IMG/VR virus record: IMGVR_UViG_3300021256_000064
Coordinates: 64,001-128,000 of that record
Length of the DNA stretch: 64,000 bases
DNA from: a virus
Direction: 5' to 3' (one strand)
The translations under genes were made by a program, and so were the position numbers. Below the pieces are notes generated by a model, which saw nothing but the letters and a program-made list of their open reading frames with translations, searched no databases and was not told the origin of the DNA. Below are positions 1,179 to 35,772 of the stretch, one piece after another (position 1 is the first letter of the stretch; each line of letters begins with the position of its first letter).

Positions 1179-1253
1179 ATCACCCGACTGGGATTCGAAC
1201 CCAGGATCCGCGGTTTTAGAGACCGCTGTGTTAAGCCACTCCACTATCGGGCG
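1179..1253 (-). tRNA. amber suppressor tRNA, anticodon CUA (reads UAG), class I, A73, U8, G18G19
   Basis: anticodon stem GCGGT/ACCGC with loop CTCTAAA (plus-strand TAG at 1217-1219); acceptor CGCCCGA/TCGGGTG; T-arm CTGGG-(G)TTCGAAT-CCCAG. Confidence 0.75.
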
Positions 1254-6819: not shown

Positions 6820-7224
6820 TTACTCTTCAACAGCTGTTGAAATTCTACGATAAGCCATTCTCTTCTTACCGTCCACTCTAACTGACTCCTTCTCAATAAG
6901 TCCTGCATTAACAAGCTTACCAAGTCTAGCAGTTACCTTAGCACGAGTAACTTCCTCGTCATCAAAAGCAACTGTAATCTCATCTACAGTAACAAGCTTA
7001 TCTGTAATAAGTTCATAGATTGCGTCTGTAAGAGCATCAGATTCAGCCTTTTTCTTCTCTGCGCGGGCTGCCGCAGCTGCCTTACGTTTATCAAGAGCTT
7101 CAATCTGCTTATCAATAAACTCTACATACTCTGTCTGCTTCTCTGCATCAGTTACTGTTGTAAGAACAAGTTCTCTAAGTTCCTCAAAATACATAGCCTT
7201 TGTTTTCTTTGTTGCGTTTTCCAT
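6820..7224 (-). CDS. winged-helix-like protein, distant member of the 117-aa paralog family
   Basis: 134 aa; shares Lys/Ala-rich linker and C-terminal R-x-T-x-R-L-x-x-L-V-x-x-G motif. Confidence 0.5.
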   Translation of the reverse strand: MENATKKTKAMYFEELRELVLTTVTDAEKQTEYVEFIDKQIEALDKRKAAAAARAEKKKAESDALTDAIYELITDKLVTVDEITVAFDDEEVTRAKVTARLGKLVNAGLIEKESVRVDGKKRMAYRRISTAVEE

Positions 7225-12686: not shown

Positions 12687-13193
12687 TTACCAATTCTGAA
12701 TAACTCTTAACTCCGCATTACAACATTTTGTAACATAATTATGCGGGTACTTGGTCATTTTACAAGCACGTGACCTGCCGCCAACCAGCTTGCCGCACTT
12801 AGAGCAATAGAGGGTATATTTATAGATTTCTTCATTTGCTCTTGTGCGTTCAAGATTATTATAAATAGCGGTATCATTTGTTGTACCAATTTTCTGACAA
12901 TAGAAACGGAATGTAGCATCATGACCATGACTCTCATGGGTGATTGCGCAAGCTACATAATGGGCGCATTCATGAGCAATTACATCTTCAATGCATTTAT
13001 CTGTCGCGGTTTCCAGAAGCTGACGTGAAATTTCAATGCGGCTGGGGTTCCAAACAGAGCCAGACTTCTGATAGAAGCATCTACCAAGAGTACGAGTAAG
13101 TCTACCGTTAATAATTACAGGGGAATTAAACTTAACATCACATCTGCCGCAATAATCAATACAAAGTTCTGTAATTCTTTCTATTGTCCACAT
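12687..13193 (-). CDS. SprT-like zinc metalloprotease domain protein
   Basis: 168 aa; HECAHY HExxH motif plus C-terminal zinc ribbon. Confidence 0.65.
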   Translation of the reverse strand: MWTIERITELCIDYCGRCDVKFNSPVIINGRLTRTLGRCFYQKSGSVWNPSRIEISRQLLETATDKCIEDVIAHECAHYVACAITHESHGHDATFRFYCQKIGTTNDTAIYNNLERTRANEEIYKYTLYCSKCGKLVGGRSRACKMTKYPHNYVTKCCNAELRVIQNW

Positions 13194-18777: not shown

Positions 18778-19031
18778 TGTTTAATTCCTTTCTTTATCTT
18801 ATGTATAAATTATAATAAATTTTAGGAAAAAAGTCAACATGGCATTTTATACAAAAGTGCGGCGAAAAATTTGTTGAATATTACATCTTGACAAATGGCG
18901 GGGCCCGGCGCTTGTCACCGGGCCGAACATTATATCATACCCGCATGAGGTTGTCAATAGGTAATTTTTAACAAAAAAATAGCCAGATTTTCGTCATTTT
19001 AACGAAAATCTGGCTGAAATTGTCAGATTAT

Positions 19032-19424: not shown

Positions 19425-19535
19425 TTGTCTACCTCATTTCTTTCTTTTGATGATTTAATTATACCGCATCCCCATACTTTTGTCAAGCGTTTTTTAAAAA
19501 ATGGGGGAGATTTTTTTCTCCCCCAAAATTGGCAT

Positions 19536-19886
19536 TTACGCCATAGAGTAATAAGGGGTTTTCTTTACGTAAACCTTTACAAGCTTACCCTCTTTTACAA
19601 GGGCGGACAGCATGTGTGTCACACGCTGGTTTGTAAAGTTTGCAATAGAGGGGACACCGCCCTGAAGCTCGCGGATTGTCTTAGGCTGGTCTACCTCAAT
19701 CAGGTAGGCGACAATATCAGCCTTGCAACTGTCATTCTCAAGCTGAGTTGCGGTAGGCTTACGAGAAGCAGAACGCTTCTTGTCCAGAAGCTTAATCTCA
19801 TTATCAATGAAAGCCACCATATCAGCATTGTCAACAACTACTTCACGGATTGCTACGAACATCTCTCTCTTTGTCATACTAGACAC
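19536..19886 (-). CDS. 117-aa winged-helix-like paralog A
   Basis: about 55-60% identical to 21850..22206 and 24247..24603 (MSSMTKREMF...ITHLLSALVK..GK). Confidence 0.6.
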   Translation of the reverse strand: MSSMTKREMFVAIREVVVDNADMVAFIDNEIKLLDKKRSASRKPTATQLENDSCKADIVAYLIEVDQPKTIRELQGGVPSIANFTNQRVTHMLSALVKEGKLVKVYVKKTPYYSMA

Positions 19887-20071
19887 CTCTTTCTTTTGAA
19901 AAATTGTTATTTGTTGTTTTCTATGTTATTATTATAACAAAGGTTTTTTGTTTTGTCAAGAACTTTTTTATTTTTTTTGAACTTGTCAATCGAACGACCT
20001 AGGACTTGTTCTACCTTATCAAAAAATTTTTTAGTGGTTGACTTCTTTGACTTTCCTTACCTTATGTATTT

Positions 20072-20100
20072 ATTATAACATAGGTTTTTTTATTTGTCAA
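20072..20100 (-). promoter_or_regulatory. archetypal minus-strand early promoter (one of more than 35 copies)
   Basis: RC TTGACA-AATAAAAAAACCTATGT-TATAAT. Confidence 0.6.
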
Positions 20101-20246
20101 GAACTTTTTTTATTTTTTTCTTGACCGCCAAGGCTTTTTCCCTTACCTTGTATAGTAATTATATCAAAAAATTTTTAAAAAGTCAACAATGGAATAATGC
20201 ACTAATTTTGGGATTTTTGCGGATGAAATTTTGTTCAAATTGTCTA

Positions 20247-20378
20247 TTGACAAAAAGTGCTGAGGTGTGGTATAATGGAATTTCAGGCCTAGCCGGAGGC
20301 GTACGGCCCGCCGACTTTAGCGCACTGAAGTGCAAAAGTGTCAAGAGAAAAAATAAAATCCGCATAAGCGGATTTTAT
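20247..20378 (+). ncRNA. plus-strand unit 1: consensus promoter, GC-rich hairpin RNA, shared terminator
   Basis: TTGACA 20247-52, TGgTATAAT 20271-76, GC segment GGCCTAGCCGGAGGCGTACGGCCCGCCG, terminator AAAATCCGCATAAGCGGATTTT. Confidence 0.5.
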
Positions 20379-20385
20379 AAACTGG

Positions 20386-20563
20386 TTTACATAAAGATAA
20401 AATACACGATACAGATAAACGCCAGACGGAAGCAAGAAGTTTGTACAGCCTTACTAAAGAACGGCTCCCACTCGTCATTGTACCACTTAATGTGGCAATC
20501 CGCGATGTGACCAATGAACATAACAATTACAAAAATAATAAACATTGTCATTCTAGTTTCCAT
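20386..20563 (-). CDS. small membrane protein (about 58 aa)
   Basis: GGAGG RBS; hydrophobic. Confidence 0.4.
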
Positions 20564-20566
20564 TTT

Positions 20567-20794
20567 TTAATCCTCCATTACTTCAAAAATATCAAAATTG
20601 GCTACTTTCTCAAATTCTACTTCAACAGAAACTAAATCCAAAATTTCTTCAACTAAATTAGCTTCTCCTTTAGTAAGATTCAAAAATCTAGGTTCTGAAC
20701 AAGGCAAATACAATACATACAATTCTTTTTTCATTTTTTTAATCCTTTCTTCTTTTGATGATATTATTATATCAAAAGGGGACTGTTTTGTCAA
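20567..20794 (-). CDS. acidic small protein (75 aa)
   Basis: ORF track. Confidence 0.45.
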   Translation of the reverse strand: MTKQSPFDIIISSKEERIKKMKKELYVLYLPCSEPRFLNLTKGEANLVEEILDLVSVEVEFEKVANFDIFEVMED

Positions 20795-20812
20795 TCCCCT
20801 TTTTTAATTTTT

Positions 20813-21520
20813 TTACGCCACGCACATTTTAAAATCAGTCTGAGGGATACGCCAAGGCATAGCCAGAATAATTTTATCCATGTGCTTGTGACAAGCGAAA
20901 CATTTAGCAAAAATTTTAGTTTCAATCAGTGCATCCTCAAGGGCGGTGTGCGCTTCCTCAAAAGAAAAATCCCTATTGATGTAGCGGTGGGCAATTTCAG
21001 CGGATGTTTTCACATTCCCGGCATCACTAACCCATGATTCACGGATGGCAAGCTTAAAGAATGTTTTCTGCTTAAGAATTGTCTGACAGCTCATACCCCA
21101 TGAACACCAGATGACAGTCTTTTCATTGAAAAAAGTCTGCTTTTCGTCAAATTTGCTCAGATAGTTAAGGGTTGAATTTAAAGCCCTTGTATCAAAACCA
21201 GCGTTGTAGGCTACTACAGCCTTTACGTTGTATTCTCTCATAAGAGAAAAGATTTCTTTGCGGATTTCCCAAAAAGATTTTACAATCCACTTGCCTGTTT
21301 TAATACCCTCTTTATATGCGGGAATTTTTTCAGCATAGTAGGCGGTTCTCATCTTCTTCCATTCGCCATAAAAGATTTCTCTTACAACGTAGGAACGTGA
21401 TTCATATATATTGCCTTTCTTGTCATGAATGGTGAAACCAATGTCATATACGAGAGGATTACCAAGGTTACCGCAAGTTTCAGTGTCAAGTGTAAGGTAG
21501 TAGTTTTTACGTCTGTCCAT
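20813..21520 (-). CDS. DnaQ-like DEDDh 3'-5' exonuclease
   Basis: LDTETCG (Exo I), NAGFD (Exo II), HTALEDA (Exo III). Confidence 0.75.
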   Translation of the reverse strand: MDRRKNYYLTLDTETCGNLGNPLVYDIGFTIHDKKGNIYESRSYVVREIFYGEWKKMRTAYYAEKIPAYKEGIKTGKWIVKSFWEIRKEIFSLMREYNVKAVVAYNAGFDTRALNSTLNYLSKFDEKQTFFNEKTVIWCSWGMSCQTILKQKTFFKLAIRESWVSDAGNVKTSAEIAHRYINRDFSFEEAHTALEDALIETKIFAKCFACHKHMDKIILAMPWRIPQTDFKMCVA

Positions 21521-21732
21521 TGTTGTTTTCCTTTCCTTTATCTTATGTACTTATTATACATGATTACTTTTAGTTTGTCAAGAGTTTTTTTTTATTTTTT
21601 TTGATTGTTTTTGTGCTTTCCTCTTGACAATTATTATTATACATGAGGGGCGGTAGAAAGTCAATTAAAAGTTATAAAAAAGTTGCACAAATTACAGGAA
21701 AAAAATTTGTGCAACTTTTTTTCAAAAAATGC

Positions 21733-21832
21733 TTGACAAAAATACGCGGGGTGTGGTATAATGGATTTTGCGCGCCAACCCGGGCGTTGGCGCGCTGACA
21801 AAAAAAGACGCCCACTCAGTGGACGCCTTTTG
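21733..21832 (+). ncRNA. plus-strand unit 2: operator IR GTTGCACAAAT...ATTTGTGCAAC, promoter, 10-bp GC hairpin GCGCGCCAAC-CCGGGC-GTTGGCGCGC, terminator
   Basis: TTGACA 21733-38, TATAAT 21757-62; terminator GACGCCCACTCAGTGGACGCCTTTT. Confidence 0.55.
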
Positions 21833-21849
21833 TGTGAGTATTAGGAGCA

Positions 21850-22206
21850 TCACTCCGCCTTGAGAGCGAAGTGAGCAACTTTCTTGACGGTCGTACGCTC
21901 GACCTTGCCATCCTTAACCAGTGCGGACAGAAGATGTGTAATTCTCTGGTTGGTGAGGTCAGCGATAGATTCGCACACCTCACAGAGTTCCCTAATTGTG
22001 ACAGGCTTGTCAACAGTTGCGAGTGCGGAGAGAATATCAGCCTTGAAAGCCTCGTTCTCTACCTGTGTCTTAGTCGGCTTGCGGGTAGCACCGCTCTTAC
22101 GATTAAGAAGGTCGATTTCCTTGTCAATAAAAGCTACCATTTCAGCGTTATCAGCAACAACCTTACGAATTTCTGCGAACATTTCTTTCTTTGTCATACG
22201 AAGCAC
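21850..22206 (-). CDS. 117-aa winged-helix-like paralog B
   Basis: ORF track; paralog of 19536 and 24247. Confidence 0.6.
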   Translation of the reverse strand: MLRMTKKEMFAEIRKVVADNAEMVAFIDKEIDLLNRKSGATRKPTKTQVENEAFKADILSALATVDKPVTIRELCEVCESIADLTNQRITHLLSALVKDGKVERTTVKKVAHFALKAE

Positions 22207-22660
22207 CTCTTTCTTTTGTGTTTTTGTTTTTCTTATGTATTTATTATATTATATTTTTTTTATTTTGTCAATAGTTTTTTTAAGATTTTGAAAAGTTAAA
22301 GTTTCGCTTCCCAGAGCGAGTTGGACTTCAGCCCTGTATCCCACTCCACTTTGTACGATTTAGTCGACTTTACGTACTCGCCTTTATGGCTCATTTTGTG
22401 GGGCTTGCCCTTTCCTCATCTTGTATAATTATTATATCATATATTTAATTGTTTGTCAAGAAGAATTTTCAAAACTTTTTTTTGTTGGGGGAGTGGAGAA
22501 TGGAGCGTGCGCACGTAACTCTTTCTAACCTACTCTCAAGAACTATGTTTCTGTCATCTCCTGACATTGTGTATTATATCAAATACCCATAAGAATTACA
22601 ATAGTCAAAATACACAAAATTATGGGAAAATGTTTGTGCATTTTGCTGAGAAAGTTTTAC

Positions 22661-22755
22661 TTGACAAAAAATGCGGCGGTATGATATACTGGAATTTCGG
22701 CGCGAACCGGAGGCTCGCGCCCCGCCCAAAAGCAGGATTTAATAACCCTGCTCTT
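22661..22755 (+). ncRNA. plus-strand unit 3 (promoter TTGACA...TATACT, hairpin GGCGCGA-ACCGGAGGC-TCGCGCC)
   Basis: seen directly; terminator hairpin overlaps stop of 22739..23002. Confidence 0.45.
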
Positions 22756-23002
22756 CTGCTTCAAGATATTCCTCTTTTGAAATTTCTTCAACGTAAGCTT
22801 GAACATGCATTTCATATATTTCAATTTCATCCCAATTATCCATATCTTCGACAAACCGCTCATCAGGATAAGCAAAAGAGTATTCATCACAACAAATCTC
22901 GTCTGCTTCAGCCCAGGCTTCACTTTCAGATTCTGCTTGAATGTAAAAATGTTCATCACAACCACAATAGCCATTTGTGCAAGTTATTTTGTAATATTTC
23001 AT
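22739..23002 (-). CDS. highly acidic Cys-containing small protein (87 aa), DNA-mimic-like composition
   Basis: ORF track. Confidence 0.45.
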   Translation of the reverse strand: MKYYKITCTNGYCGCDEHFYIQAESESEAWAEADEICCDEYSFAYPDERFVEDMDNWDEIEIYEMHVQAYVEEISKEEYLEAEEQGY

Positions 23003-23143
23003 TTTAATACCTCACTTCCAACTAATGTAAAGTTTATAAAAACAAAACTCATGGTGATAATCACAATTTTCATTGTAATTATAACCCCAATAGGGGTCGT
23101 TCCAACGGTTCCAACCAATTTTAATTTTCATTTTTGTCTCCTT

Positions 23144-23371
23144 TCAATCTTCTTCTACAAGTTCCCCAAACAGCTCACATACTTCACGCCATTCACCATC
23201 ATTACTTGCAATAAATTCAAAGATTTCATCATCAGGTTCATCGGGGACGCCATCTCTAATCCAAATATCATAAACAAAGTCATCCCCCATATCAATGATG
23301 TAGTTATGCATACCTTTAAGAAGTTCAATTCTTCTTTCAATCTCACTCTGTTTCGTACTCTTAATTGTCAT
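23144..23371 (-). CDS. acidic small protein (75 aa)
   Basis: ORF track. Confidence 0.45.
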   Translation of the reverse strand: MTIKSTKQSEIERRIELLKGMHNYIIDMGDDFVYDIWIRDGVPDEPDDEIFEFIASNDGEWREVCELFGELVEED

Positions 23372-23608
23372 TTTTTTTATTTCCTTTCTTCTTTTGATGT
23401 TATTAGTATATCATAAGGAATTAGAGTTGTCAACCCCTTATTTTTTCATTTAGGCGGCTGTCGGGATGCGCTGCATCCTTTTTATCCGACATTTAATCAT
23501 CTTCGTCCGGTGACGCTCCGCAGATTTGCGGGTCTTCCGACTTGCATCCAGTGGAACCGCTTATGTTATTAGTATATCATAAGGGGTTGGAGTTGTCAAT
23601 CCCTTATT

Positions 23609-23800
23609 TTATCTTTCTCTAAAGAAATAATCAGTGAGTTCACTTTCATCTTTTTCGCTATAAGGACACATATAAGTTTCACGAGCTTCAGGTGGAAAAT
23701 ATTGAGGGTCATTGTGGTCTGCCCTAAGATAACAATATTTTTCAGGTGTCATTTCTACAACTTTTTCTACTCGCATTATATAAGAGATTTTAACTTTCAT
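23609..23800 (-). CDS. hypothetical protein (63 aa)
   Basis: ORF track. Confidence 0.4.
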   Translation of the reverse strand: MKVKISYIMRVEKVVEMTPEKYCYLRADHNDPQYFPPEARETYMCPYSEKDESELTDYFFRER

Positions 23801-24018
23801 TTGGTGTGTTCCTTTCTTTATCTTATGTATAAATTATAATAAATTTTAGGAAAAATGTCAAGTTGTAATTTTGCACAAAATACAAATCAAAAATTTGTAT
23901 AGTATCACATATTGACAAAACGCATCCCGCGGCGGTCCGTTGCGGGATGCCAAAAGGGGACTGCCTTCTACGACAGCCCCCACACCAAAAGAAAGGAAAA
24001 CAAATATTAGATTCTGAG

Positions 24019-24092
24019 TGAGGGTGAGGGGACTTGAACCCCCGACACCTAGATTAAAAGTCTAGTGCTCTAGCCAACTGAGCTACACCCTC
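24019..24092 (-). tRNA. tRNA-Lys(UUU) embedded in early region
   Basis: acceptor GAGGGTG/CACCCTC, D-arm GCTC-AGTTGGCTAGA-GCAC, anticodon stem CTAGA/TCTAG, loop CTTTTAA, T-loop TTCAAGT. Confidence 0.7.
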
Positions 24093-24246
24093 AAAATGGG
24101 CGGGCTTATATTGCAAGGCGCTCCGCCAGCCTTAGGACTATTCTACTTAGTTCGTTCTTTTAGGCAACTCGGCTTGAATTATCCCATATATAGAAAGCCT
24201 TTTCCTTTAATGCGGTTTTTAAGGATGACCGCAAACCCTTATGGAG

Positions 24247-24603
24247 TTAAGCGTAGGAGAAGTAAGCAACCTTCTTCACCTGTGTTCTGACTACTTTGCC
24301 ATCCTTAATGAGGGCTGTCAGAAGGTGTGTGATTCTCTGGTTCGTCAGCTCTGCAATAGAGGGGCAAACCGCACACAGTTCCTTGATTGTTACAGGCTTG
24401 TCAACCTCAATAAGAGAAGCAATAATGTCAGCCTTGAAGCCATCATTCTCAACCTGTGTCTTTGTGGGCTTGCGAGAAGCGGATTTCTTCTTATCCAGAA
24501 GCTTAATTTCGTTCTGGATGAAAGCTACCATGTCCTCATTCTCAGCTACTGCGGAAACCTTAAGCATTTCATTGTACATTTCTCTCTTCGTCATACTAGA
24601 CAC
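24247..24603 (-). CDS. 117-aa winged-helix-like paralog C
   Basis: ORF track. Confidence 0.6.
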   Translation of the reverse strand: MSSMTKREMYNEMLKVSAVAENEDMVAFIQNEIKLLDKKKSASRKPTKTQVENDGFKADIIASLIEVDKPVTIKELCAVCPSIAELTNQRITHLLTALIKDGKVVRTQVKKVAYFSYA

Positions 24604-24639
24604 CTCTTTCTTTTTTTATGTTTTGTTTTTTCTTTATCT

Positions 24640-25200
24640 TATGTATTTATTATAACTTATTTTTTTTATTTTGTCAAGAGTTTTTTTTATTTTTTTTATT
24701 TTGTTTTCGTGGGTTTGGCGCCTTATACCACGTGGCTGATAGCATTTTTGTTAGCCCCTTACATCCACCCTAACATGGGGCTTAAATCCTAACTCCCATA
24801 CACTTAATGTCCTTTTCTTTGCTTAACTTCTGTATTTATTATATCATATCTTTTTTAATTTGTCAATCACTTTTTTTATTTTTTTTCGGCGGGTCTCTCA
24901 TAAGATTGGCTCCTCTCCTGACTTTACTTACTTCCAACTTGAAAGTATGTCATCAACTTTTTTCGTATTTTTTAAAGTTTTTTCGGCGGGTCTCTCATAA
25001 GAATCAATCCTTTCTTTATCTTATGTATTTATTATACCATAAGATTTTTTATTTGTCAATAGTTTTTTTAAGATTTTTTGAAGTGACTTTCTTTTGTTCA
25101 GATAACCGATAGGCGCGAGGCTCTACCAATCACCCTACTTAATGTTGTTGTCCTTCCTTTATCTTGATATAATTATATCAAAAGTTTTTTAAAAAGTCAA
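24640..25200 (-). promoter_or_regulatory. four consecutive promoter modules without ORFs, separated by GC-richer filler; repeated motif CGGCGGGTCTCTCATAAGA (x2 here, x1 at 30331)
   Basis: TATTATA...TTGTCAA modules at about 24650-24700, 24835-24880, 25025-25070, 25160-25200. Confidence 0.45.
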
Positions 25201-25260
25201 CAACGGAATAATGCACTATTTTTGGGATATTTTTTTGTGCAACTTTTTTTCAAATTTCAC

Positions 25261-25364
25261 TTGACAAAATGTGCGGGACATGGTATAATGGTGATTTCGC
25301 GCCAGGCCGATGGCTGGCGCGCCGCTAATCTTTAAATAAAAAAAGAGGGTGTAAAACCCTCTTA
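25261..25364 (+). ncRNA. plus-strand unit 4 (hairpin GCGCCAG-GCCGATGG-CTGGCGC)
   Basis: TTGACA 25261-66, TGgTATAAT 25284-89. Confidence 0.5.
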
Positions 25365-25583
25365 ATTGCCCATTCTCAATTCTCGATTCAGTTCTCTTAC
25401 AATCCTTTTAGTCTCATCAAGACCGATTGTATTAATGGCTTCATTAATTTTGGAGAGGATTTCACGCTTACACTCATAACGTCTCTGCTCCTGTGCTTTC
25501 TTTTCTCTAATTTCCATTAAATATTTGTGGAGTGCTTCGCGTTCGTCTGCTGTAATAAGGTATCCCATGAATTCGTTTTTCAT
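25362..25583 (-). CDS. hypothetical protein (73 aa)
   Basis: ORF track. Confidence 0.45.
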   Translation of the reverse strand: MKNEFMGYLITADEREALHKYLMEIREKKAQEQRRYECKREILSKINEAINTIGLDETKRIVRELNRELRMGN

Positions 25584-25638
25584 TTTTTTATTTCCTTTCT
25601 TTTTGATGATTTAATTATACTACAGAAATTATTATCTG

Positions 25639-26094
25639 TCAAGACTTTTGTGTAAAAATAATTTCTGTACCAGTATAGAAAGAGCGAGTACTTATGACTT
25701 CTTTTTTAAACCCTTCTAATTCAAATTTATCATTGAGATATTCCTCAATTTTCCAATGGAATTTACTCCAAAAAAGGCGGTCTTTTATTTTTAAATATTT
25801 TTTTGCAAAACCTATAGTCCATCCTATCCCGTTGTCATAAAAGAAAAAGGTTTTATCATCAGGGTTCCAATCACTTATCTGAGGGATGTAATAAGTAAGA
25901 ATCTCATCGGCTCTTTTTTCATCCCAAGTTGTGCGCTCATAATTCCAATTTTTGATTCGGTCGCTAATTTCAACACAAATCCAAATAGGGAAGAGGATGA
26001 TTCTCATTACTTTATAATCATTTTTGTGCCACCAATCGCGGATGAGGTGCTTTTTCTGTTTATCTTCAATAGCTTTTAAGATTTCTTTATTCAT
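25639..26094 (-). CDS. hypothetical protein (151 aa)
   Basis: ORF track. Confidence 0.55.
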   Translation of the reverse strand: MNKEILKAIEDKQKKHLIRDWWHKNDYKVMRIILFPIWICVEISDRIKNWNYERTTWDEKRADEILTYYIPQISDWNPDDKTFFFYDNGIGWTIGFAKKYLKIKDRLFWSKFHWKIEEYLNDKFELEGFKKEVISTRSFYTGTEIIFTQKS

Positions 26095-26159
26095 TTTTTT
26101 ATTTCCTTTCTTTCTTTTGATATATTAATTATACTATGAAAAACTAAAATTGTCAATAG

Positions 26160-26399
26160 TTATTTTATTTTTTCAATAATTAACCAACCGCAATTAATAC
26201 GAGCTGAATCATTAACCCTTTCAATAATAGATGTTCCCCATCCATTAGCTTTTGAAAAAATCATTTGCTTTGCGGAGTCATAAGAGTTAAAAGCATGTGG
26301 ATATTCACCAAATTTAGTTGAAAGGTCATTCTCATCACAAAAGGCTATTACATATTGAGGGGTATTTATTTCTTTTTCTTTAGAAAATATAAAAAACAT
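26160..26399 (-). CDS. hypothetical protein (79 aa)
   Basis: ORF track. Confidence 0.45.
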   Translation of the reverse strand: MFFIFSKEKEINTPQYVIAFCDENDLSTKFGEYPHAFNSYDSAKQMIFSKANGWGTSIIERVNDSARINCGWLIIEKIK

Positions 26400-26465
26400 T
26401 ATTTAGCTCCTTTTCTTTTGATACACTAATTATACAGCATTCTTTTTGGAATGTCAAGGGGATTT

Positions 26466-26909
26466 TTACATCCCCTTGAGAATTTCAATAATTGAGTGGA
26501 CATCGAAAGCCTTGCCTGTCCAGTTTTCTCTGTTCTTAGATTCATCATCGAACAGAATATCATTAGTTGTGTTAGCGAACGTCTGTTTAGGAGTGCCATA
26601 AGGAACAATGTTAATTTCATCGAATTTTACACTTGCCAGATGCTTATTAAGCCATGCCATTTTAGCTTCCGTTACTTTTGTATCGTATGATGCGGTGGAT
26701 GTTTTAGAAAGCCAAGAGATAACGCCGATTCTGTAGCCCTGTTTCTGAAGTCTATTCAAAATGCGGGCAAGTGAATTGAGGTTGACAAGTGGCTTTGCAT
26801 TAGCGTACGGGAACGGGTCATATGCTCTAAGAAGGGGAAGCCAATTGGGGACACTGTAAAGGTCTGCGATTGTACCGTCCATATCAAAGTAGATTGTAGT
26901 AGCTGTCAT
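26466..26909 (-). CDS. HAD-superfamily phosphatase (5'-nucleotidase-like)
   Basis: FDMDGTIAD DxDGT motif near N-terminus; GAGGAG RBS. Confidence 0.65.
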   Translation of the reverse strand: MTATTIYFDMDGTIADLYSVPNWLPLLRAYDPFPYANAKPLVNLNSLARILNRLQKQGYRIGVISWLSKTSTASYDTKVTEAKMAWLNKHLASVKFDEINIVPYGTPKQTFANTTNDILFDDESKNRENWTGKAFDVHSIIEILKGM

Positions 26910-27036
26910 GTTTCTGTTCTCCTCTCTCTTGATGATACTATTATAGCATGGGGGCATTGGGGTGTCAACTATTTTCAATAAAAAAGTTGCACAAATTATG
27001 GGATAAAAATTTGTATTTTTTTGTGCAAAATTTCGC

Positions 27037-27134
27037 TTGACAAAATGGTGCGGCATGTGGTATAATGGTTGAACGGGCTGCGCCCGGCCGCCCCCGCGGC
27101 GACGAAAAAATAGAGGTAATTACCCCTATTTTTT
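27037..27134 (+). ncRNA. plus-strand unit 5
   Basis: TTGACA 27037-42, TATAAT 27061-66, GC tract GGGCTGCGCCCGGCCGCCCCCGCGGCG, terminator AGAGGTAATTACCCCT+T6. Confidence 0.5.
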
Positions 27135-27405
27135 AAATATGATAAAGTTTTCCGTCAAGGACGTAGATGACACCCTCAGAACCATCATACTCGTCAATCT
27201 CCCAATCAGTAGCTTCATCCGGAATATCTACAATAGCAAGTCGGGCACAATGACCATTTGCGGCTTTCCCTAAAGTGTTAACTACCTCGATTAGACGAGG
27301 GTCTGTTCGAGAGATTAGAGGATAACGAGTTTTAAACCCAAGCATCTGCAAAGCTTCATCTGAAAGACCAAAACCGCCAAAACAAGTATTAATGCAAATC
27401 TTCAT
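27133..27405 (-). CDS. hypothetical protein (90 aa)
   Basis: ORF track. Confidence 0.5.
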   Translation of the reverse strand: MKICINTCFGGFGLSDEALQMLGFKTRYPLISRTDPRLIEVVNTLGKAANGHCARLAIVDIPDEATDWEIDEYDGSEGVIYVLDGKLYHI

Positions 27406-27438
27406 TTTTTATTTCCTCTCTTTTCTTTATCTTATGTA

Positions 27439-27624
27439 TTAATTATAGCCTGCTTCTTTCATTTTGTCAAGCATTTTTTGAGAAGTTTTTAAATATTTAT
27501 ATTTTCTATTTTCTTCACACCAGGGGCAACCGCCATGATTTCTGCATCTTTTAGAAATTGCTTTTCCGCCAGAATAGGGGCGCCGATGTTCTTTTCCACT
27601 TGTGATTGATTTCATTAAAGACAT
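27439..27624 (-). CDS. small basic zinc-ribbon protein (61 aa)
   Basis: ORF track; CRNHGGCPWC. Confidence 0.45.
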   Translation of the reverse strand: MSLMKSITSGKEHRRPYSGGKAISKRCRNHGGCPWCEENRKYKYLKTSQKMLDKMKEAGYN

Positions 27625-28163
27625 TTTTATTTACCCCCTTTTTAATTTTCCTTAAGGTTTTTATAAAGTTCCGCCAGTTGCTCATACAGAACTCCAATTT
27701 CATAATCCAATTTAATTCTTTTTGCAAAACTCCGGCACTTATTATAAGCACGTCTTTTATCTTTAAGCTGTTTCTCTATCTCATCAATCTGAATTCTTGT
27801 CATTGTTTTAACTTCCTTTCTCTTGATGATATAATTATACTATAGGGGTTGAGATTTGTCAACCCCTATTTTAATTTTTTAATTCGGGAAGGCTTCCATC
27901 ATAGCCTTGTACTCATCAGGTGTCTTTGCCAGTCTATCAACAATACGCCACCAAAGATCCATTCGGTCAGAAATATTGGACTTATGACCAACCAGATATT
28001 CAAAATTTTCGATTGTTTTGTTGTAGATTGCGATTGCTTCTTCCATGTCTGTGTTCTCCTCTCTCTTGATGATACTAGTATAGCATAGCCTACATAAGAA
28101 GTCAAGTAAAATATTGCACAAATTTGGGAATTTTTTCAGCTAATTTTTTGTGCAAATTGCCAA

Positions 28164-28257
28164 TTGACAAAAGTTGGAAGGTATGCTATAATGGTTCGGC
28201 GGGCAGGCCCCGGCTGCCCGCGCGCCACTCAAAAAAGAGGGCTTAAGCCCCCTTTCT
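28164..28257 (+). ncRNA. plus-strand unit 6 (hairpin GCGGGCAG-GCCCCGG-CTGCCCGC)
   Basis: TTGACA 28164-69, TATAAT 28187-92, terminator AGAGGGCTTAAGCCCCCTTTCT. Confidence 0.5.
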
Positions 28258-28434
28258 GGCTCTCTCACGTCTCTTCTTTTCAGCTTTCAGTGCGTGCTCC
28301 CGCATCTGAAGCTTCACATTTTCTGGAGTTTCGTCTACAGGAAGCAGGTGAACCGCCTTAATACCCTCAGCCTTAGCAGTTGCAAAATTCTCAGTTACCT
28401 TACCGCCCTTTGTCTCGTATCTAACTGTTCTCAT
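28243..28434 (-). CDS. hypothetical basic protein (63 aa)
   Basis: ORF track. Confidence 0.45.
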   Translation of the reverse strand: MRTVRYETKGGKVTENFATAKAEGIKAVHLLPVDETPENVKLQMREHALKAEKKRRERARKGA

Positions 28435-28503
28435 TCTAATTTCTCCTTTTCTTTTGTTATCTTATATATAAATTATACTATTTTTCTTTTAAGTTGTCAA
28501 CAA

Positions 28504-28692
28504 TTATTTTTCATTTTCAAAAGGAACGTTTAAAGCTACAACCATAGCCAGTGTTACGATTTCATCAGAAACTGCTTTGTTTTCCGCCAGATTGCAAAAC
28601 CAAATTGTAGTTTCGTCCTCTAATCCTCTAAAAGTTGCGACCTTATTTTCCATTTCCATTCTAGACATAATTAATCCTCCATTTTGATCCAT
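28504..28692 (-). CDS. hypothetical protein (62 aa)
   Basis: ORF track. Confidence 0.4.
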   Translation of the reverse strand: MDQNGGLIMSRMEMENKVATFRGLEDETTIWFCNLAENKAVSDEIVTLAMVVALNVPFENEK

Positions 28693-28734
28693 ATATGAGG
28701 GGTTCGGTTCGTTTACCGAACCCCTAACCAGTTA

Positions 28735-28920
28735 TCAGATTCTAGCAAGAATCTTTGACATGATTTCATTGTGTGCGTTAAGAGCATCCATATACAGGCT
28801 ATCAGCTCTGCACCATGCTTCGAAGTTGTTTGCCCTTGTAGCTCTGACCAGTTCGGCATATGCACGATTAAGTTCTGTTCTAAGTTCCTGTTCCTTTGCT
28901 CTCATTTCTGTAAGTGTCAT
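28735..28920 (-). CDS. hypothetical protein (61 aa)
   Basis: ORF track; similar to 32146..32328 (MT..EMRAKE..L...AY.L..A). Confidence 0.45.
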   Translation of the reverse strand: MTLTEMRAKEQELRTELNRAYAELVRATRANNFEAWCRADSLYMDALNAHNEIMSKILARI

Positions 28921-29178
28921 TTTTGTTTTCCTCTCTTTCTTTATCTTATGTACTTATTATACATGATGTTTTTTATTTTGTCAAGGGGTTTTTTATTTTT
29001 TTTCAAGTTTCCAGATTGGATTTTTTGTTGTATCCCGTGTGCCGTCGGCATTGAAGAACCAAATTGCGCGATAATTATCCATTGAAATAATTACCATATT
29101 GCCAAACTCTTTTATTTGATAGCCACGGCTTCTATGAATACGAATGAATTTGTCTTTTGTCATTTTTTTGTTCTCCTT

Positions 29179-29361
29179 TCAAAAACCAATGTAGTGGTCA
29201 AACTGTCCGTCAATCCGACATTCAATGTACCAATCTTCTTCAGAACACATATCTTCTTCTAAAAGACAGCCAAAAGCGTGAGCATTTTCGTAAGAAGTAA
29301 ATGTATCTTCTTTAAAATGATGTCCCATACAATCAATCACCCACACCACATATTCAAACAT
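29179..29361 (-). CDS. acidic Cys/His small protein (60 aa)
   Basis: ORF track. Confidence 0.4.
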   Translation of the reverse strand: MFEYVVWVIDCMGHHFKEDTFTSYENAHAFGCLLEEDMCSEEDWYIECRIDGQFDHYIGF

Positions 29362-29449
29362 TTTTTTGTTCTCCTCTCTTGTTTCTGATATAATGATACT
29401 ACTTTTTTAGTCACTTGTCAAAGGATTTTTTTAATTTTTATGCGGTTTA

Positions 29450-29732
29450 GCATTTTGCACAAAAAGGCTTTAAAAAGTTTGTGCAATTTGCTATTTTTAT
29501 TTTTAGCTATTGACAAAAAATTTTTTGTGCAAACTGCACAATAACAGAGTGCTTCACTTGTGTAGTTTGCACAACTCCAGAAAAGTCAAGTAGAAATGTT
29601 GCACAAAAATGGGGCAGTTTTGGGCGTTCTTTTTGTGCAATTTGACGAGAAGCACATCTGCACCGATCTGTCAATGGGCAAATTGCACAAATTTGGGAAA
29701 AAATTGCGCTTAATCTTTGTGTAATTTGCCTA
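29450..29732. promoter_or_regulatory. dense array (8 or more) of TTGCACAAA / TTTGTGCAA operator half-sites upstream of unit 7 promoter
   Basis: seen directly. Confidence 0.6.
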
Positions 29733-29815
29733 TTGACAAAACCGCGAGGGTATGGTATAATGGTTGAACGGGCAAAGCCCGTGCGCCCACGGCGCGCCGA
29801 GCAAGAGCCGGAGCT
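29733..29815 (+). ncRNA. plus-strand unit 7 (hairpins ACGGGC-AAA-GCCCGT and GCGCC-CAC-GGCGC)
   Basis: TTGACA 29733-38, TGgTATAAT 29756-61. Confidence 0.45.
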
Positions 29816-30009
29816 TAGGAGAAGAATCTATTCCAAGCTTCCCACTCCTCAGTCCAGAGGTCCTCGATGTCTGTCCAATCGAGGTTCTCATCTCCGCTCA
29901 GCATAGCCGAACGAGCAAAGGCTGTAGCTTCCATAGCCTTGCGGTACTGCTCTACCTTGCGGTTTGTGAGGGTTGCTGTGATGCCGTCTGCGATAATGAT
30001 TGTTGTCAT
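29815..30009 (-). CDS. acidic small protein (64 aa)
   Basis: ORF track. Confidence 0.45.
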   Translation of the reverse strand: MTTIIIADGITATLTNRKVEQYRKAMEATAFARSAMLSGDENLDWTDIEDLWTEEWEAWNRFFS

Positions 30010-30094
30010 TTTTTTATCTCCTCTCTCTTGATGATTTTATTATATCAGATGGGATTGTTTTTGTCAACTACTTTTTTTTATTTTTTTTAGCGGA

Positions 30095-30180
30095 GCGAGT
30101 GGGAGTTGAACCCAAGAGAACTACTTGCTAGCATTTTCGTTCCCAGACGTCACCGTCTACCTACTTCCGTTCGGCTTACC
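30095..30180 (-). ncRNA. promoter-driven tRNA-like RNA (T-loop GGGTTCAACTCCC) occupying the slot where a module normally carries a CDS
   Basis: promoter 30185-30235 has ATCATCGGAAGG in place of RBS; transcript lacks ORF. Confidence 0.35.
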
Positions 30181-30418
30181 CTTCCGATGATTTTATTATA
30201 TCAAAGACTTTTTAGTTTGTCAACTACTTTTTTTATTTTTTGGTGAGGGATGGGAACTTGTCCGCTCACCGTGCCTGTATTCATCGCGCCCTAATGTCCC
30301 CAGGCTCTGGCGCATTTCTTTGGTTTGTTGGTTTTTACGGCGGGTCTCTCATTTCTGTGTTCCTCTCTTTTGATGATTTTATTATATCAGGTGGGGTTGA
30401 TTTTGTCAACCCCTTTTT

Positions 30419-30565
30419 TCAATTTTTTTCTTCTATTGTCATGTACTCTTCATAACCGAGGTTATCCCAAGCAGTATCTACATATTCGCAAGCCTCTTCA
30501 TAAGAATCGAATACTTCATCTACACTCCAGTTTCCACAGCAATCCATGAACCATACTTCGTACAT
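30419..30565 (-). CDS. acidic Cys-containing small protein (about 48 aa)
   Basis: internal ATG of ORF 30419..30622. Confidence 0.35.
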   Translation of the reverse strand: MYEVWFMDCCGNWSVDEVFDSYEEACEYVDTAWDNLGYEEYMTIEEKN

Positions 30566-30734
30566 TTTTGTTCTCCTCTCTCTTGATGATTCTATTATAT
30601 CAGATAGGTTGAAGTTTGTCAACCTTTTATTTTTATTTTTTAGAAGTTTTTGATATGAGTGGGAGATTTTCGACTTAGTTTAAAACTTACTCGCCTCGTC
30701 TGGGTGAACTTGCTTTAAAACACCCTTCGAAGTA

Positions 30735-30790
30735 AAGGAAGGAATCGAACCTTGTGTTGCTGTCAGCCTTTCTGACTGCCTTTACCTTAT
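30735..30790 (-). ncRNA. mini tRNA-like RNA at +1 of a promoter module: acceptor-like, D-arm-like and T-arm (AAGG-TTCGATT-CCTT) but no anticodon arm
   Basis: RC GGTAAAGGCAGTCAGAAAGGCTGACAGCAACACAAGGTTCGATTCCTTCCTTTACT. Confidence 0.3.
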
Positions 30791-31494
30791 GTTTTTATTA
30801 TACCAGAGGGGTTGAGGTTTGTCAACCCCTCTTTTTCATTTTTTTAATTTTCTTTGAGAAGCTCTTCAGCGATTTCCTCGGCTTCCGCCTCGGTGATTTC
30901 GTTGTATGCTACCATTCTGACCAGTTCTTCGAACATCATGTACTTCATTTTGCGTTCCTCGCTTTCTTTATCTTATGTACTTATTATATCAGATGTTTTG
31001 TAGTTTGTCAACTACTTTTTTTATTTTTTTGAAGCTTTCTACATTTCAGATGAACAACCGGCGCTTGGCTCGTCCGCCCACCCTATTCTGTTTTGTTGCT
31101 TCCTTTCTTTTGATGATTTAATTATATCATGGGGCTTGGCTTTTGTCAAGCCCCTTTTTTAATTTTTTTAAAAGATTTTTACGACTTTTCTGTCATCGTT
31201 ATCGTTATCTGTTGTGATAACCGCTGTTGTAGCATCTACATCTACAATACCATCCCAACCGCCATCCATAGCTGTCTGAACCGGAATGTTAAGTGCGTTA
31301 TTTGCTACTGCCCAGTTATAAAGATCCATGATTGTCATTTTTTTTACTTCCTTTCGTTTGTGTTTTTGTTTTCCTTTGATGATATAAGTATACCATCCTA
31401 GGTTTCTGTTGTCAATAGTTTTTTAAAAATCATATCAAAAATATTGCACAAAAATAGGAATTTATTTTTGTACATTTTGACGAATAAATTAGTC

Positions 31495-31606
31495 TTGACA
31501 AACTGCGTTGTAGTGTGGTATAATTTTCACGGCCTCCAGCCGTTCGTTTGTGGTTGCTAATCTTATTAGTTAATAAAAAGATAAGAGCGTTTCCGCTCTT
31601 ATCTTA
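31495..31606 (+). ncRNA. plus-strand unit 8 (hairpin ACGGC-CTCCA-GCCGT; terminator AGATAAGAGCG-TTTC-CGCTCTTATCT)
   Basis: TTGACA 31495-500, TGgTATAAT 31519-24. Confidence 0.5.
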
Positions 31607-31904
31607 CCTCGTTATATTTATTTCTTGTGTGTTCTTTTGCCAGTGCTAAAAGGTCTGTCGGGATTGTTTCATTTTCGTTGTAGTATCTTCTAATCTGTCC
31701 TGGTCTAGCGATTAATCTAGTTACCATTTTCTTTGTTCTTTCATTGTAGATTGTAATGATTGCTGTTGAGCTAATCACGTGGATTTCAGCACCGTTGCGA
31801 TGTCCTCTGTCTACTCTAACTTCCTTTACTGGTGTTCCTTCACCGATCTGCTGAATAAGTTCTTCTCTTGCTTTTCTATCTTTTGTGTAATGCTTGCTTG
31901 TCAT
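31599..31904 (-). CDS. hypothetical protein (101 aa)
   Basis: ORF track. Confidence 0.5.
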   Translation of the reverse strand: MTSKHYTKDRKAREELIQQIGEGTPVKEVRVDRGHRNGAEIHVISSTAIITIYNERTKKMVTRLIARPGQIRRYYNENETIPTDLLALAKEHTRNKYNEVR

Positions 31905-32044
31905 GTCTTTGTTCTCCTTTGCTTTTGTTTTCTTTTGATGATACTATTATAACGCTTACTTTATTAGTTGTCAATAGGTTTTCAACAAAAATATTGCACA
32001 ATTTTAGGTGATTTATTTTGTTACTTTTGACGAATAACTTAGTC

Positions 32045-35343: not shown

Positions 35344-35772
35344 TTATCTTAACCCCATATATTCAATAATTTGTTTATTTTTTTCAATAGCATAATTCCT
35401 TGTTATGAATGTTCCTCCACCGCCAACACCGTCCCATACACACAAGAGAGTATCTGCATTATCCACCATAAAACGGTCTCTAACAAAATATGCCATTTTT
35501 GAATATTTATCAGAAATAAAAGCAATATGATTTCCTTCCATAATCCACTTTTCTGTTGGTGAATAATACTTTTTGGGAAATGGATAGCAGCAAACTATAG
35601 GTATATCCAACTCCTTTGCGGCTGTTGCTATAATTTGATCAGTCCCTTGTGCCATGCCGTCAAAAATCAATGATGGCTGAAGGCGAGTAAGCTGCTCCAC
35701 CGCCCACTTTTTTACTAGTTTCTCTTGTCCTTTTAATCGTCCTGGTCGATGTCCTGTTACAGCTAAAATCAT
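35344..35772 (-). CDS. SLOG / DUF1273 (YpsA-like) family protein
   Basis: 142 aa; N-terminal VTGHRPxRL and GGG(G)T motifs. Confidence 0.5.
   Translation of the reverse strand: MILAVTGHRPGRLKGQEKLVKKWAVEQLTRLQPSLIFDGMAQGTDQIIATAAKELDIPIVCCYPFPKKYYSPTEKWIMEGNHIAFISDKYSKMAYFVRDRFMVDNADTLLCVWDGVGGGGTFITRNYAIEKNKQIIEYMGLR

Follow-up and report, generated by a model that had tools for sequence, protein, structure and literature searches.

Diverged copies of a small winged-helix gene and their partial linkage to antisense promoter-hairpin units in an uncultured gut/rumen phage

The stretch of DNA analysed here (64,000 nt, positions 64,001 to 128,000 of IMG/VR virus record IMGVR_UViG_3300021256_000064, hereafter the window) carries three related small genes on one strand and short promoter-hairpin units on the other, and this raises the question of what the gene products do and whether genes and units belong together. 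The first-pass annotation had described three near-identical paralogs, each wired to one of three plus-strand RNA units. ORF calling confirmed the existence of the ORFs at 19536-19886, 21850-22206 and 24247-24603, all on the minus strand, and the likely ATG starts, each preceded by a Shine-Dalgarno sequence, are at 19877, 22197 and 24594. The genes considered are:

19536..19877, minus strand: P1, winged-helix family paralog, 113 aa, 12.8 kDa, pI 9.2 (ORF, alignment, pI, family HMM and tblastn)
21850..22197, minus strand: P2, paralog, 115 aa, the sequence used for the structure model
24247..24594, minus strand: P3, paralog, 115 aa, sister of P2
6820..7224, minus strand: P4, distant family member, 134 aa
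24018..24092, minus strand: tRNA-Lys(UUU), immediately following P3 and co-oriented with it

Rather than being near-identical, the three proteins (113-115 aa from the ATG) have diverged, sharing 58 % (P1/P2), 66 % (P1/P3) and 69 % (P2/P3) amino acid identity. They share a helical hairpin at the N-terminus that is strongly conserved (MTKxEMF...FIDxEIxLLxKK), followed by a basic linker (KPTKxQxEN) and, at the C-terminus, a winged helix whose recognition helix is nearly identical in all three. The more distant relationship proposed for 6820-7224 held up, at 29-32 % identity and a pairwise BLASTP E value of 2e-4; P4 has one promoter, its own terminator and no unit close by, and its orthologue is conserved and single-copy in related phages (L048-L060). 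P1-P3 are three diverged copies of a small uncharacterised winged-helix gene, and the uncultured gut/rumen phage carries them in its early region.

The winged-helix C-terminus, which had been suggested from sequence, was recovered when structure prediction was run. The AlphaFold2 model of P2 (a protein 100 % identical to P0001; pLDDT 88) has helices at residues 3-13 and 18-36 followed by a canonical winged helix at 43-112, with the topology H-H-linker-H-S-H-H-S-S, and its three-helix bundle, in which a beta-hairpin wing follows the recognition helix (H1-S1-H2-H3-S2-W1-S3), places the domain in the winged helix-turn-helix superfamily. Below that level, many winged-helix families fit the model equally well, and profile searches gave weak matches to the winged-helix domains of Hop2 and BlaI. 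No model in Pfam, PHROG or NCBIfam reached threshold for the family; the best match in PHROGs v4 was to phrog_19455 (E=0.004, function unassigned) with no PHROG common to 60 members, and the best NCBIfam score was 17.8 bits against a cut-off of 100. The structural neighbours in BFVD are uncharacterised proteins of gut Siphoviridae.

Four known families were considered and rejected. The MarR dimer interface is formed by N- and C-terminal helices flanking the winged helix, and the model has no helices after the wing; in the Pfam MarR/MarR_2 comparison, MarR_2 reached 15.8 and 16.7 bits where the cut-off is 27. BlaI/MecI proteins have an N-terminal winged helix and then a C-terminal helical dimerisation/cleavage domain, so that their domain order is the reverse of that found here, where the extra helices are N-terminal; the best Pfam score (Penicillinase_R) in a representative was 18.5 against 22.6, and the profile match to PDB entry 1sd4 (E=0.016) covers the winged helix only. 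The marks of ArsR/SmtB are an HTH_5 or HTH_20 match, an alpha1/alpha5 dimer and metal-sensing sites, and here HTH_20 reached 14.4 bits against 27, in P4 only, matches to CadC had E values of 0.24-0.44, and there is no alpha5. The Zalpha signature consists, in ADAR1 numbering, of Asn173 and Tyr177 in the recognition helix and Pro192-Pro193-x-Trp195 in the wing; when P1-P3 were aligned to an approximate ADAR1 Zalpha sequence, Thr was found at N173 and Ser/Thr at Y177 with no PPxW wing, and the fold is no more similar to Zalpha than to other winged helices. Compared with the MarR, ArsR/SmtB, BlaI/MecI and Fur N-domain repressors, the family adds the conserved N-terminal helical hairpin and basic linker, has no ligand or metal site, and is phage-only and multi-copy, and its layout is unlike that of small dimeric winged-helix repressors, in which the dimerisation helices are C-terminal or flanking.

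The family is large, unannotated, essentially phage-restricted and repeatedly multiplied within phage lineages. There are 438 close homologues, and searches returned at least 4,472 clusters at 50 % identity (E<=1e-3; 1,947 at E<=1e-10), almost only from phage contigs; among 185,579 species genomes, only 12 matches were found, all in MAG contigs, several of them 140-175 kb. In related phages a 12-kb locus holds 2-5 copies, which all lie on one strand. The copies form orthologous groups common to several phages in the window's own clade and cluster by lineage in more distant ones.

Each of P1-P3 is a separate transcription cassette made up of 2-4 tandem consensus sigma-70 promoters, a Shine-Dalgarno sequence, the gene and a terminator:

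19931..20186, minus strand: three tandem sigma-70 promoters feeding P1, at 20186-20158 (TTGACT), 20100-20072 and 19959-19931; repeat family D1
19502..19525, minus strand: intrinsic terminator of P1
22243..22601, minus strand: tandem promoters feeding P2, at 22601-22573 (10/12), 22459-22431 and 22271-22243
24649..25200, minus strand: four tandem promoters feeding P3, at 25200, 25059, 24866 and 24677; repeat families D1 and D12

A 32-aa ORF (start 22394) lies between the P2 promoters and two MRDPPKK micro-ORFs lie between those of P3, the cassette of which ends with the tRNA and then a terminator, and the tRNA-Lys(UUU) and P3 are probably co-transcribed. Fifteen perfect (12/12) promoters are found within 6.4 kb, promoter-like sites number 43 vs 17.9 ± 4.7 in shuffles, and repeats are far above chance. 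Family genes have on average more consensus promoters upstream than other ORFs (1.8 vs 0.48) and longer intergenic regions (318 vs 85 nt).

The units on the opposite strand consist of a perfect consensus sigma-70 promoter, then a 5' GC hairpin, then a terminator. The window holds not three but eight plus-strand units (-35 boxes at 20247, 21733, 22661, 25261, 27037, 28164, 29733 and 31495); besides these plus-strand units, two same-sense ones are at 18957 and 17290. Those closest to P1-P3 are:

20247..20382, plus strand: unit 1, perfect extended -10 promoter, GC hairpin(s) and terminator, head-to-head with the P1 promoter stack
21733..21836, plus strand: unit 2, promoter 21733-21762, hairpin 21770-21795 and bidirectional terminator at about 21803-21836, convergent with P2
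22661..22757, plus strand: unit 3, promoter, hairpin 22699-22721 and terminator 22731-22752, divergent from the P2 cassette
25261..25368, plus strand: unit 4, promoter, hairpin at about 25298-25321 and terminator 25343-25363, divergent from the P3 cassette
23871..23950, unstranded: degenerate unit, TTGCACAAA and a TTGACA box with no -10

Unit 2 does lie immediately 3' of the P2 stop, as had been noted, with its terminator just beyond that stop. Unit 1, the terminator of which is common to the minus-strand gene 20387-20563, is indeed near P1; described earlier as 3' of 19536, it lies 361-370 nt beyond the 5' end of the gene, upstream of it and divergent. Unit 3, the best covariance-model match (33.9 bits), is 464 nt upstream of P2. 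The degenerate copy reported at 23921 retains TTGCACAAA and TTGACA but no -10, and its hairpin (23913-23950) reads on the minus strand as the terminator after the tRNA; P3 does have an intact, divergent unit, unit 4, 667 nt upstream.

The GC hairpin shows compensatory changes and is conserved as a structure rather than as a sequence: 89.6 % of cells are paired (71.1 ± 1.3 in shuffles), double changes number 72 (21.4 in shuffles) and the covariation score is 0.40 vs 0.10 (0/500 shuffles), with 0.03-0.10 for slid controls. The hairpins of 248 distinct units have a median energy of -19 kcal/mol (z = -1.9 vs dinucleotide shuffles), and the stems are rich in alternating CG/CA steps. Because the stem sequence is different in each of the eight window hairpins and a GGAAWTTC leader is common to them, they are the opposite of what RNA anti-CRISPR mimicry of one CRISPR repeat would predict. 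With Rfam 15, only tRNAs reached the gathering score in the window, and 19900-32000 gave no match with E<=1 that overlaps the promoter or hairpin of a unit.

Co-occurrence analysis in related phages, as had been proposed, found gene-unit linkage well beyond chance. When IMG/VR was scanned with the unit motif alone, a family gene was on the opposite strand in 52 of 60 loci. The nearest divergent ORF was a family gene for 74 of 182 distinct units, a 3.4-fold head-to-head excess over the 22.0 ± 4.1 expected from label permutation (maximum 37 in 2,000 permutations), and the convergent neighbour was a family gene for 35 of 182 (21.9 ± 4.1 expected; 1.6-fold). However, units outnumber genes (eight to three in the window), in related phages a family neighbour is present for only 51 % of units and only 39 % of family genes are flanked by an intergenic region that contains a unit, which does not fit each gene being wired to one unit. 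The linkage is real but partial, not one-to-one.

In the prevailing arrangement, the outermost cassette promoter is back-to-back with the antisense unit in a stereotyped layout in which the two facing -35 boxes are about 59 nt apart and enclose the motif TGCACAAA...GGGAA...TTTGTGCAA. Two such control regions or operator-like elements in the window are:

20187..20246, unstranded: control region from the outermost P1 promoter to unit 1, carrying ATGCACTAATTTTGGGA...TTTTGTTCAA; repeat D11
21676..21721, unstranded: operator-like inverted repeat (18 nt, perfect; AAAAAAGTTGCACAAATT / AATTTGTGCAACTTTTTT), located upstream of unit 2

The first has 81 % identity with 25170-25274, upstream of unit 4. 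TTGCACAAA occurs 17 times vs 1.2 expected, the half-site spacers are 14 or 24 nt and thus one helical turn apart, and the sense-side -35 is imperfect in 138 of 166 cases.

The reading we tentatively favour, while rating it somewhat short of probable, is that the family members are abundant, dimeric, early DNA-binding regulators that act on the common divergent control region. P1-P3 would then set the balance between their own outermost promoter, with its weak -35, and the antisense promoter, and this balance-setting would amount to an autoregulatory or temporal switch in the early region. As the recognition helices of P1-P3 are near-identical, one common target is suggested, not three separate circuits. 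A functional analogy can be drawn with p4 of phi29, a ~12-kDa early protein of a Firmicute (Bacillus) phage, which binds between the back-to-back promoters A2b and A3, represses the early promoter and activates the opposing promoter, which has a poor -35. Both are small early phage proteins associated with back-to-back promoters, but p4, which is not known to have a winged-helix fold and occurs as a single copy, targets a late mRNA promoter, whereas the promoter here is that of a short hairpin RNA.

Against the regulator reading, 61 % of family genes lack an adjacent unit, and none of the P4-type genes had one nearby. Moreover, the TGCACAA motif is common to clades with very different family recognition helices (TNQRITH, SNQRVSA, SLAKATA and EVQKTSA) and is missing altogether at some family-bearing loci. 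Helix and operator therefore do not co-vary, and another phage or host protein may read the operator; since most of the neighbouring early proteins have no recognisable fold, other proteins may also bind the control region.

These proteins could alternatively be made in bulk, as an abundant architectural or host-takeover winged helix that coats DNA non-specifically or titrates an abundant host target, the linkage to units being a by-product of duplication and recombination of promoter/terminator cassettes. The lack of helix/operator covariation is consistent with this, as is conservation across 120 representatives, which is higher in the N-terminal half than in the recognition helix and suggests a protein-protein or other non-sequence-specific role. 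Stacked perfect promoters (2-4 per gene) and multiple copies (2-5 per locus) are better suited to a protein required in large amounts than to a classical low-copy repressor, and lineage-wise clustering of copies in distant clades is expected for dosage-driven duplication or concerted evolution. Furthermore, the duplicated segment D11 includes the region upstream of the unit (control region plus the beginning of the unit promoter), and co-duplication of whole cassettes could be a partial source of the linkage.

A possible precedent is provided by the PeSL (promoter-early stem-loop) cassettes of T4-type phages, many copies of which, each a strong sigma-70-type promoter and a stem-loop, lie among small early ORFs without assigned function and can mediate duplication and shuffling (PMC2839356, PMC4122927), including of early genes (PMC2839356). 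With these may be compared the co-oriented promoters and terminators that recur here (repeat families D1 and D11), the paralogs and the one duplicated cassette pair (D11). However, host type and phage lineage differ, and PeSLs point in the same direction as the genes and their stem-loop is a terminator, whereas here an extra perfect promoter points backwards, the hairpin is at the RNA 5' end and a conserved motif lies between the promoters; the antisense promoter-hairpin unit has no PeSL counterpart (PMC2839356). Against a by-product, the 3.4-fold head-to-head excess is seen across very divergent clades and in unit-ascertained loci too, the pI of P1-P3 is only mildly basic (8.6-9.2; family median 6.7), unlike that of typical DNA-coating proteins, and divergence of the copies exceeds what pure dosage would need. 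We consider bulk action doubtful as the main explanation.

It is improbable that the winged helix instead binds the 5' GC hairpin of the neighbouring unit's small RNA, in an RNP that stabilises, sequesters or delivers it. The winged helices of SelB, Roquin and Zalpha do bind RNA stem-loops, the family gene adjoins an RNA gene as often as the linkage counts indicate, and the hairpin is stable, structurally conserved and rich in alternating CG/CA steps. However, there are more units than family genes, half of the units lack a family neighbour, the family has no sequence relationship to the SelB C-terminal domains or to Zalpha of ADAR1/ZBP1, the contact residues of which are not conserved, and most winged-helix proteins of comparable size bind double-stranded DNA. 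The stems also vary between units of one phage while the paralog recognition helices are the same, and therefore any RNA recognition would be by shape only. A two-part protein-RNA module that multiplies inside phage genomes, recognises the alternating CG/CA hairpin by shape and acts on the host as an RNP, e.g. by acting as decoy for a nuclease or for a defence that senses RNA or hairpins, is likewise a decidedly long shot.

The antisense circuits also proposed in the first-pass annotation, in which plus-strand RNAs would regulate the paralog mRNAs, are very unlikely: though unit 2 converges on P2 with a terminator in common and convergent pairs are in excess, the commoner, divergent arrangement gives no complementarity to the gene, the predicted convergent RNA stops at the bidirectional terminator before the coding sequence and overlaps only the 3' UTR terminator stem, and the same layout is found behind many unrelated genes (20387-20563, 22739-23002 and 25362-25583 in the window; 88 and 92 units with a non-family convergent neighbour in related phages).

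Among unannotated early-gene families, this is one of the more abundant in a broad clade of gut/rumen phages of 130-190 kb in which TAG is read as a sense codon. With a predicted fold and a genomic grammar (perfect promoters in tandem, and an antisense promoter-hairpin unit placed head-to-head at a fixed 59-nt geometry with a common motif), a patch of phage dark matter becomes a regulatory module that can be tested. Should the proteins control the divergent promoters, they would form the early-gene switch of the gut/rumen phages that carry the family, and should they bind the hairpin RNAs, this would be a new class of small phage-encoded RNP. Under either reading, the consensus for promoter and hairpin offers a means of annotating the early regions of related phages.

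The window has a low GC content (33 %) and comes from an uncultured phage. Its left 36 kb are transcribed leftward and carry small genes and 11 tRNAs, including the three paralogs P1, P2 and P3, for each of which AAAGAAAGAGGTG precedes the probable ATG, and a further relative, P4.

19536-19886, minus strand: P1 ORF, probable start ATG 19877, giving 113 aa
21850-22206, minus strand: P2 ORF, probable start ATG 22197, giving 115 aa
24247-24603, minus strand: P3 ORF, probable start ATG 24594, giving 115 aa
6820-7224, minus strand: P4, 134 aa

P1-P3 are mildly basic (pI 8.6-9.2). The first-pass annotation had called them near-identical, an overstatement since they share only 58 % (P1/P2), 66 % (P1/P3) and 69 % (P2/P3) amino-acid identity, and had rightly taken P4 to be a distant relative (29-32 % identity, BLASTP E=2e-4). 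As a whole, that observation was partly confirmed and its interpretation partly supported. No cultured or deposited phage matched 17-27 kb at the nucleotide level, and the single tblastn match was the unannotated faecal contig MT835855.1. The early minus-strand genes, paralogs included, use the standard code. In the late plus-strand half (35800-64000), TAG is read as a sense codon: frames that run for at least 200 codons from stop to stop rose in number from 8 (2,449 codons) to 18 (8,401 codons) with read-through of TAG, TGA read-through produced no change, TAG is the third codon of the gene that the 35859 promoter precedes, and the tRNA cluster includes a CUA-anticodon suppressor tRNA (1180-1253, minus strand). 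phAss-1 is a TAG-recoded phage group of similar size, but the paper describing it (PMC10607447) is silent on promoters and on these genes.

The suggestion that the paralogs contain a winged helix was right, because an AlphaFold2 model of P2 (60 homologues as input, mean pLDDT 88) has one of textbook form (H43-62, S66, H68-74, H83-95, hairpin 99-112), preceded by N-terminal helices (3-13 and 18-36) and a basic linker of lower confidence. Searches of Pfam, PHROGs and NCBIfam using the four proteins, 60 members and 10 distant representatives returned nothing above threshold, and sub-threshold winged-helix families were the sole hints. Foldseek found no match in the PDB at E<=1e-3, and a structure search of BFVD matched uncharacterised proteins only. 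Zalpha identity was ruled out on signature residues. An exhaustive profile search recovered 4,472 clusters defined at 50 % identity when E<=1e-3 was required, and 1,947 with E<=1e-10. Only 12 matches were found among 185,579 species genomes, all on MAG contigs (several spanning 140-175 kb) with mutually inconsistent taxonomy, and hence a host could not be assigned. The family of P1-P3 thus lies outside every named family, and is a new, large winged-helix family that is in practice confined to phages. Among 120 representatives (median 37 % identity), the best-conserved parts are MTKxEMF, FIDHEIELLxKK, KPTKxQxENE and LSNQKxSALLxxLxxxGxVxRTxxKKxAYF, and the N-terminal module is under constraint at least equal to that on the DNA-reading helix. 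One public-library representative, P0360 (1,394 aa), includes three matched family-domain stretches near the C-terminus together with a weak BRCT hint; it may be a fusion, which could provide a clue to function.

The paralogs lie among units that combine a promoter with a GC-rich hairpin. In the plus-strand units, the promoter is a perfect sigma-70 promoter (TTGACAAA, a 17-18 nt spacer, TGnTATAAT, then GG), the hairpin comes a few bases beyond the start site, and downstream of it are an A-rich stretch and the terminator belonging to the converging minus-strand gene. In the two same-sense units, the hairpin forms the mRNA 5' end, with an inverted TTGACA box behind it. The -35 positions are as follows.

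20247, plus strand: unit 1
21733, plus strand: unit 2
22661, plus strand: unit 3
25261, plus strand: unit 4
27037, plus strand: unit 5
28164, plus strand: unit 6
29733, plus strand: unit 7
31495, plus strand: unit 8
18957, minus strand: same-sense unit
17290, minus strand: same-sense unit

A degenerate copy proposed at 23921 retains the upstream motif and a -35 box; however, it is without a -10, and its hairpin serves as the terminator of tRNA-Lys. No unit matched Rfam, and in 19900-32000 no unit promoter or hairpin was overlapped by an Rfam match at E<=1. Over the 248 distinct units in all fetched loci, the hairpin medians are 12 pairs and -19 kcal/mol, with a z of -1.9 relative to dinucleotide shuffles. 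Aligned with MAFFT, 33 unit RNAs yielded no RNAalifold consensus structure, since their stems are not in register. A covariance model seeded with 11 hairpins of equal geometry recovered 69 matches, 60 of them distinct; it is narrow, and within the window it detects units 3 and 4 alone. Though fitting the alignment to the model biases it towards pairing, 89.6 % of cells were paired versus 71.1 ± 1.3 in shuffles, there were 72 double changes versus 21.4 ± 3.2, and the covariation score was 0.40 versus 0.10 (reached by 0/500 shuffles; slid controls 0.03-0.10). Hence the structure of the hairpin is maintained even though the sequence drifts. The loops are often purine-rich and Shine-Dalgarno-like (CCGGAGGC, GAGGAACG, AAGGACAG; e.g. 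window 22706-22714, L035 4636-4672 and L040 4217-4253, L-numbers denoting related viral loci), and the stems favour alternating CG/CA steps (...CGUGCGCG). In related phages, many of the hairpins sit between two perfect promoters that face each other approximately 94 bp apart (L062 9640/9734; L067 2198/2292 and 7513/7607; L024 8616/8710; L039 5580/5674; L073 7216/7311), so that one hairpin, read in opposite directions, opens both transcripts, a layout that suggests transcriptional interference or an insulator.

Each of P1-P3 has an intact unit head-to-head upstream, with -35 to ATG distances of approximately 370 nt (20247 to P1), 464 nt (22661 to P2) and 667 nt (25261 to P3), and unit 2 meets the 3' end of P2, as had been noted before. 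The claim that each paralog is wired to an RNA unit holds in that the two are linked beyond chance, but the relationship is not one-to-one; units 5-8 are antisense units without a nearby family gene. An initial association test, confined to convergent pairs within 220 nt, gave a weak signal (25/136 versus 75/1117), and the linkage emerged only when the divergent side was examined. After duplicate removal, the nearest divergent ORF was a family gene for 74/182 units (expected 22.0 ± 4.1, maximum 37 in 2,000 label permutations) and the nearest convergent ORF for 35/182 (expected 21.9 ± 4.1 on label permutation), and an intergenic region next to the gene held a unit for 64/164 family genes. When IMG/VR was scanned with the unit motif alone, 52 of the 60 loci found included a family gene, always on the opposite strand. 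P4-type genes have one promoter and never a unit, and a unit was also lacking, by the criteria used here, from 3/12 MAG loci longer than 10 kb.

The gap between the unit -35 and the family ATG (median 397 nt) is filled by tandem consensus promoters, three each for P1 and P2 and four for P3. Family genes have 1.8 upstream consensus promoters and intergenic regions of 318 nt versus 0.48 and 85 nt for other ORFs. The stack upstream of P2 also holds a 32-aa ORF (start 22394), and that of P3 holds two repeated micro-ORFs, MRDPPKKL and MRDPPKKNKKSD (repeat family D12; 24871-25030, minus strand), each with its own perfect promoter and Shine-Dalgarno sequence. The outermost sense promoter, whose -35 is usually imperfect (e.g. 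TTGACT, TTGATT, TTGTAT), is set back-to-back to the unit promoter, and the spacing of the two is fixed (median 59 nt between -35 boxes). The control region between them contains the motif TGCACAAA/GGGAA, and each unit is preceded by TTGCACAAAtt-N-GGGAa ... TTTGTGCAA. TTGCACAAA occurs 17 times versus 1.2 expected, and the half-site spacers of 14 or 24 nt are one helical turn apart. The non-coding stretch 29380-29760 clusters 3.5 TTGCACAAA/TTTGTGCAA half-site pairs with these spacers, and at a promoter-like site one of its half-sites separates the -35 from the -10 position. This stretch may serve as an origin or as a master control region.

Related viral loci (61, each of 12 kb, on which this census rests) carry 2-5 family copies per 12 kb, nearly always on one strand. 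A neighbour-joining tree divides the window's clade into two groups, P1 and P2/P3, and in more distant phages the copies from one phage lineage fall together (L037 with five, L024 and L040 with three each), which indicates repeated duplication or concerted evolution. The recognition helices are nearly alike within one phage (TNQRITH in the window) and vary across clades (SNQRVSA, SNQKLSA, SVNKASA, SLAKATA, EVQKTSA). As TGCACAA is common to clades with very different helices, there is no support for the family helix as its reader, and some family-bearing loci do not have the motif. It may be read by another protein. Pfam searches with 20 neighbouring early proteins as other DNA-binding candidates identified only the following, the other early ORFs tested giving no match.

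20813-21520, minus strand: sub-threshold DnaQ/Rv2179c-like 3'-5' exonuclease
26466-27056, minus strand: NT5C-type 5'-nucleotidase
12687-13193, minus strand: SprT-like metalloprotease
35344-35772, minus strand: weak DprA/SLOG-like protein

The family gene is an early winged-helix gene that is strongly and independently transcribed and multiplied within genomes. Its preferred position is head-to-head with an antisense promoter-hairpin unit, the two being separated by a stereotyped control region that includes an inverted repeat. As the likeliest reading, though a somewhat doubtful one, we tentatively propose that the proteins are abundant, dimeric putative DNA binders that would act at the control region and balance the activity of their own outermost promoter with that of the antisense promoter. 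P1-P3 would then have a single target in common instead of each running its own circuit, because the recognition helix is common to all three. The main weakness of this regulator model is the distribution of TGCACAA, shared by clades with differing helices and missing from some family loci. A rival is a bulk architectural or host-takeover protein, with the unit linkage reflecting co-duplication of a cassette; repeat D11 is indeed one duplicated cassette, and the PeSL-mediated shuffling known in T4-type phages (PMC2839356) is analogous. Another is that protein and RNA would form one module, with the winged helix binding the unit hairpin. The antisense circuit originally envisaged fits poorly, because the divergent layout is the commoner one and convergent RNAs end at the shared terminator. 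The winged-helix family described here is new, large and phage-only, and its genomic grammar is both unusual and conserved.
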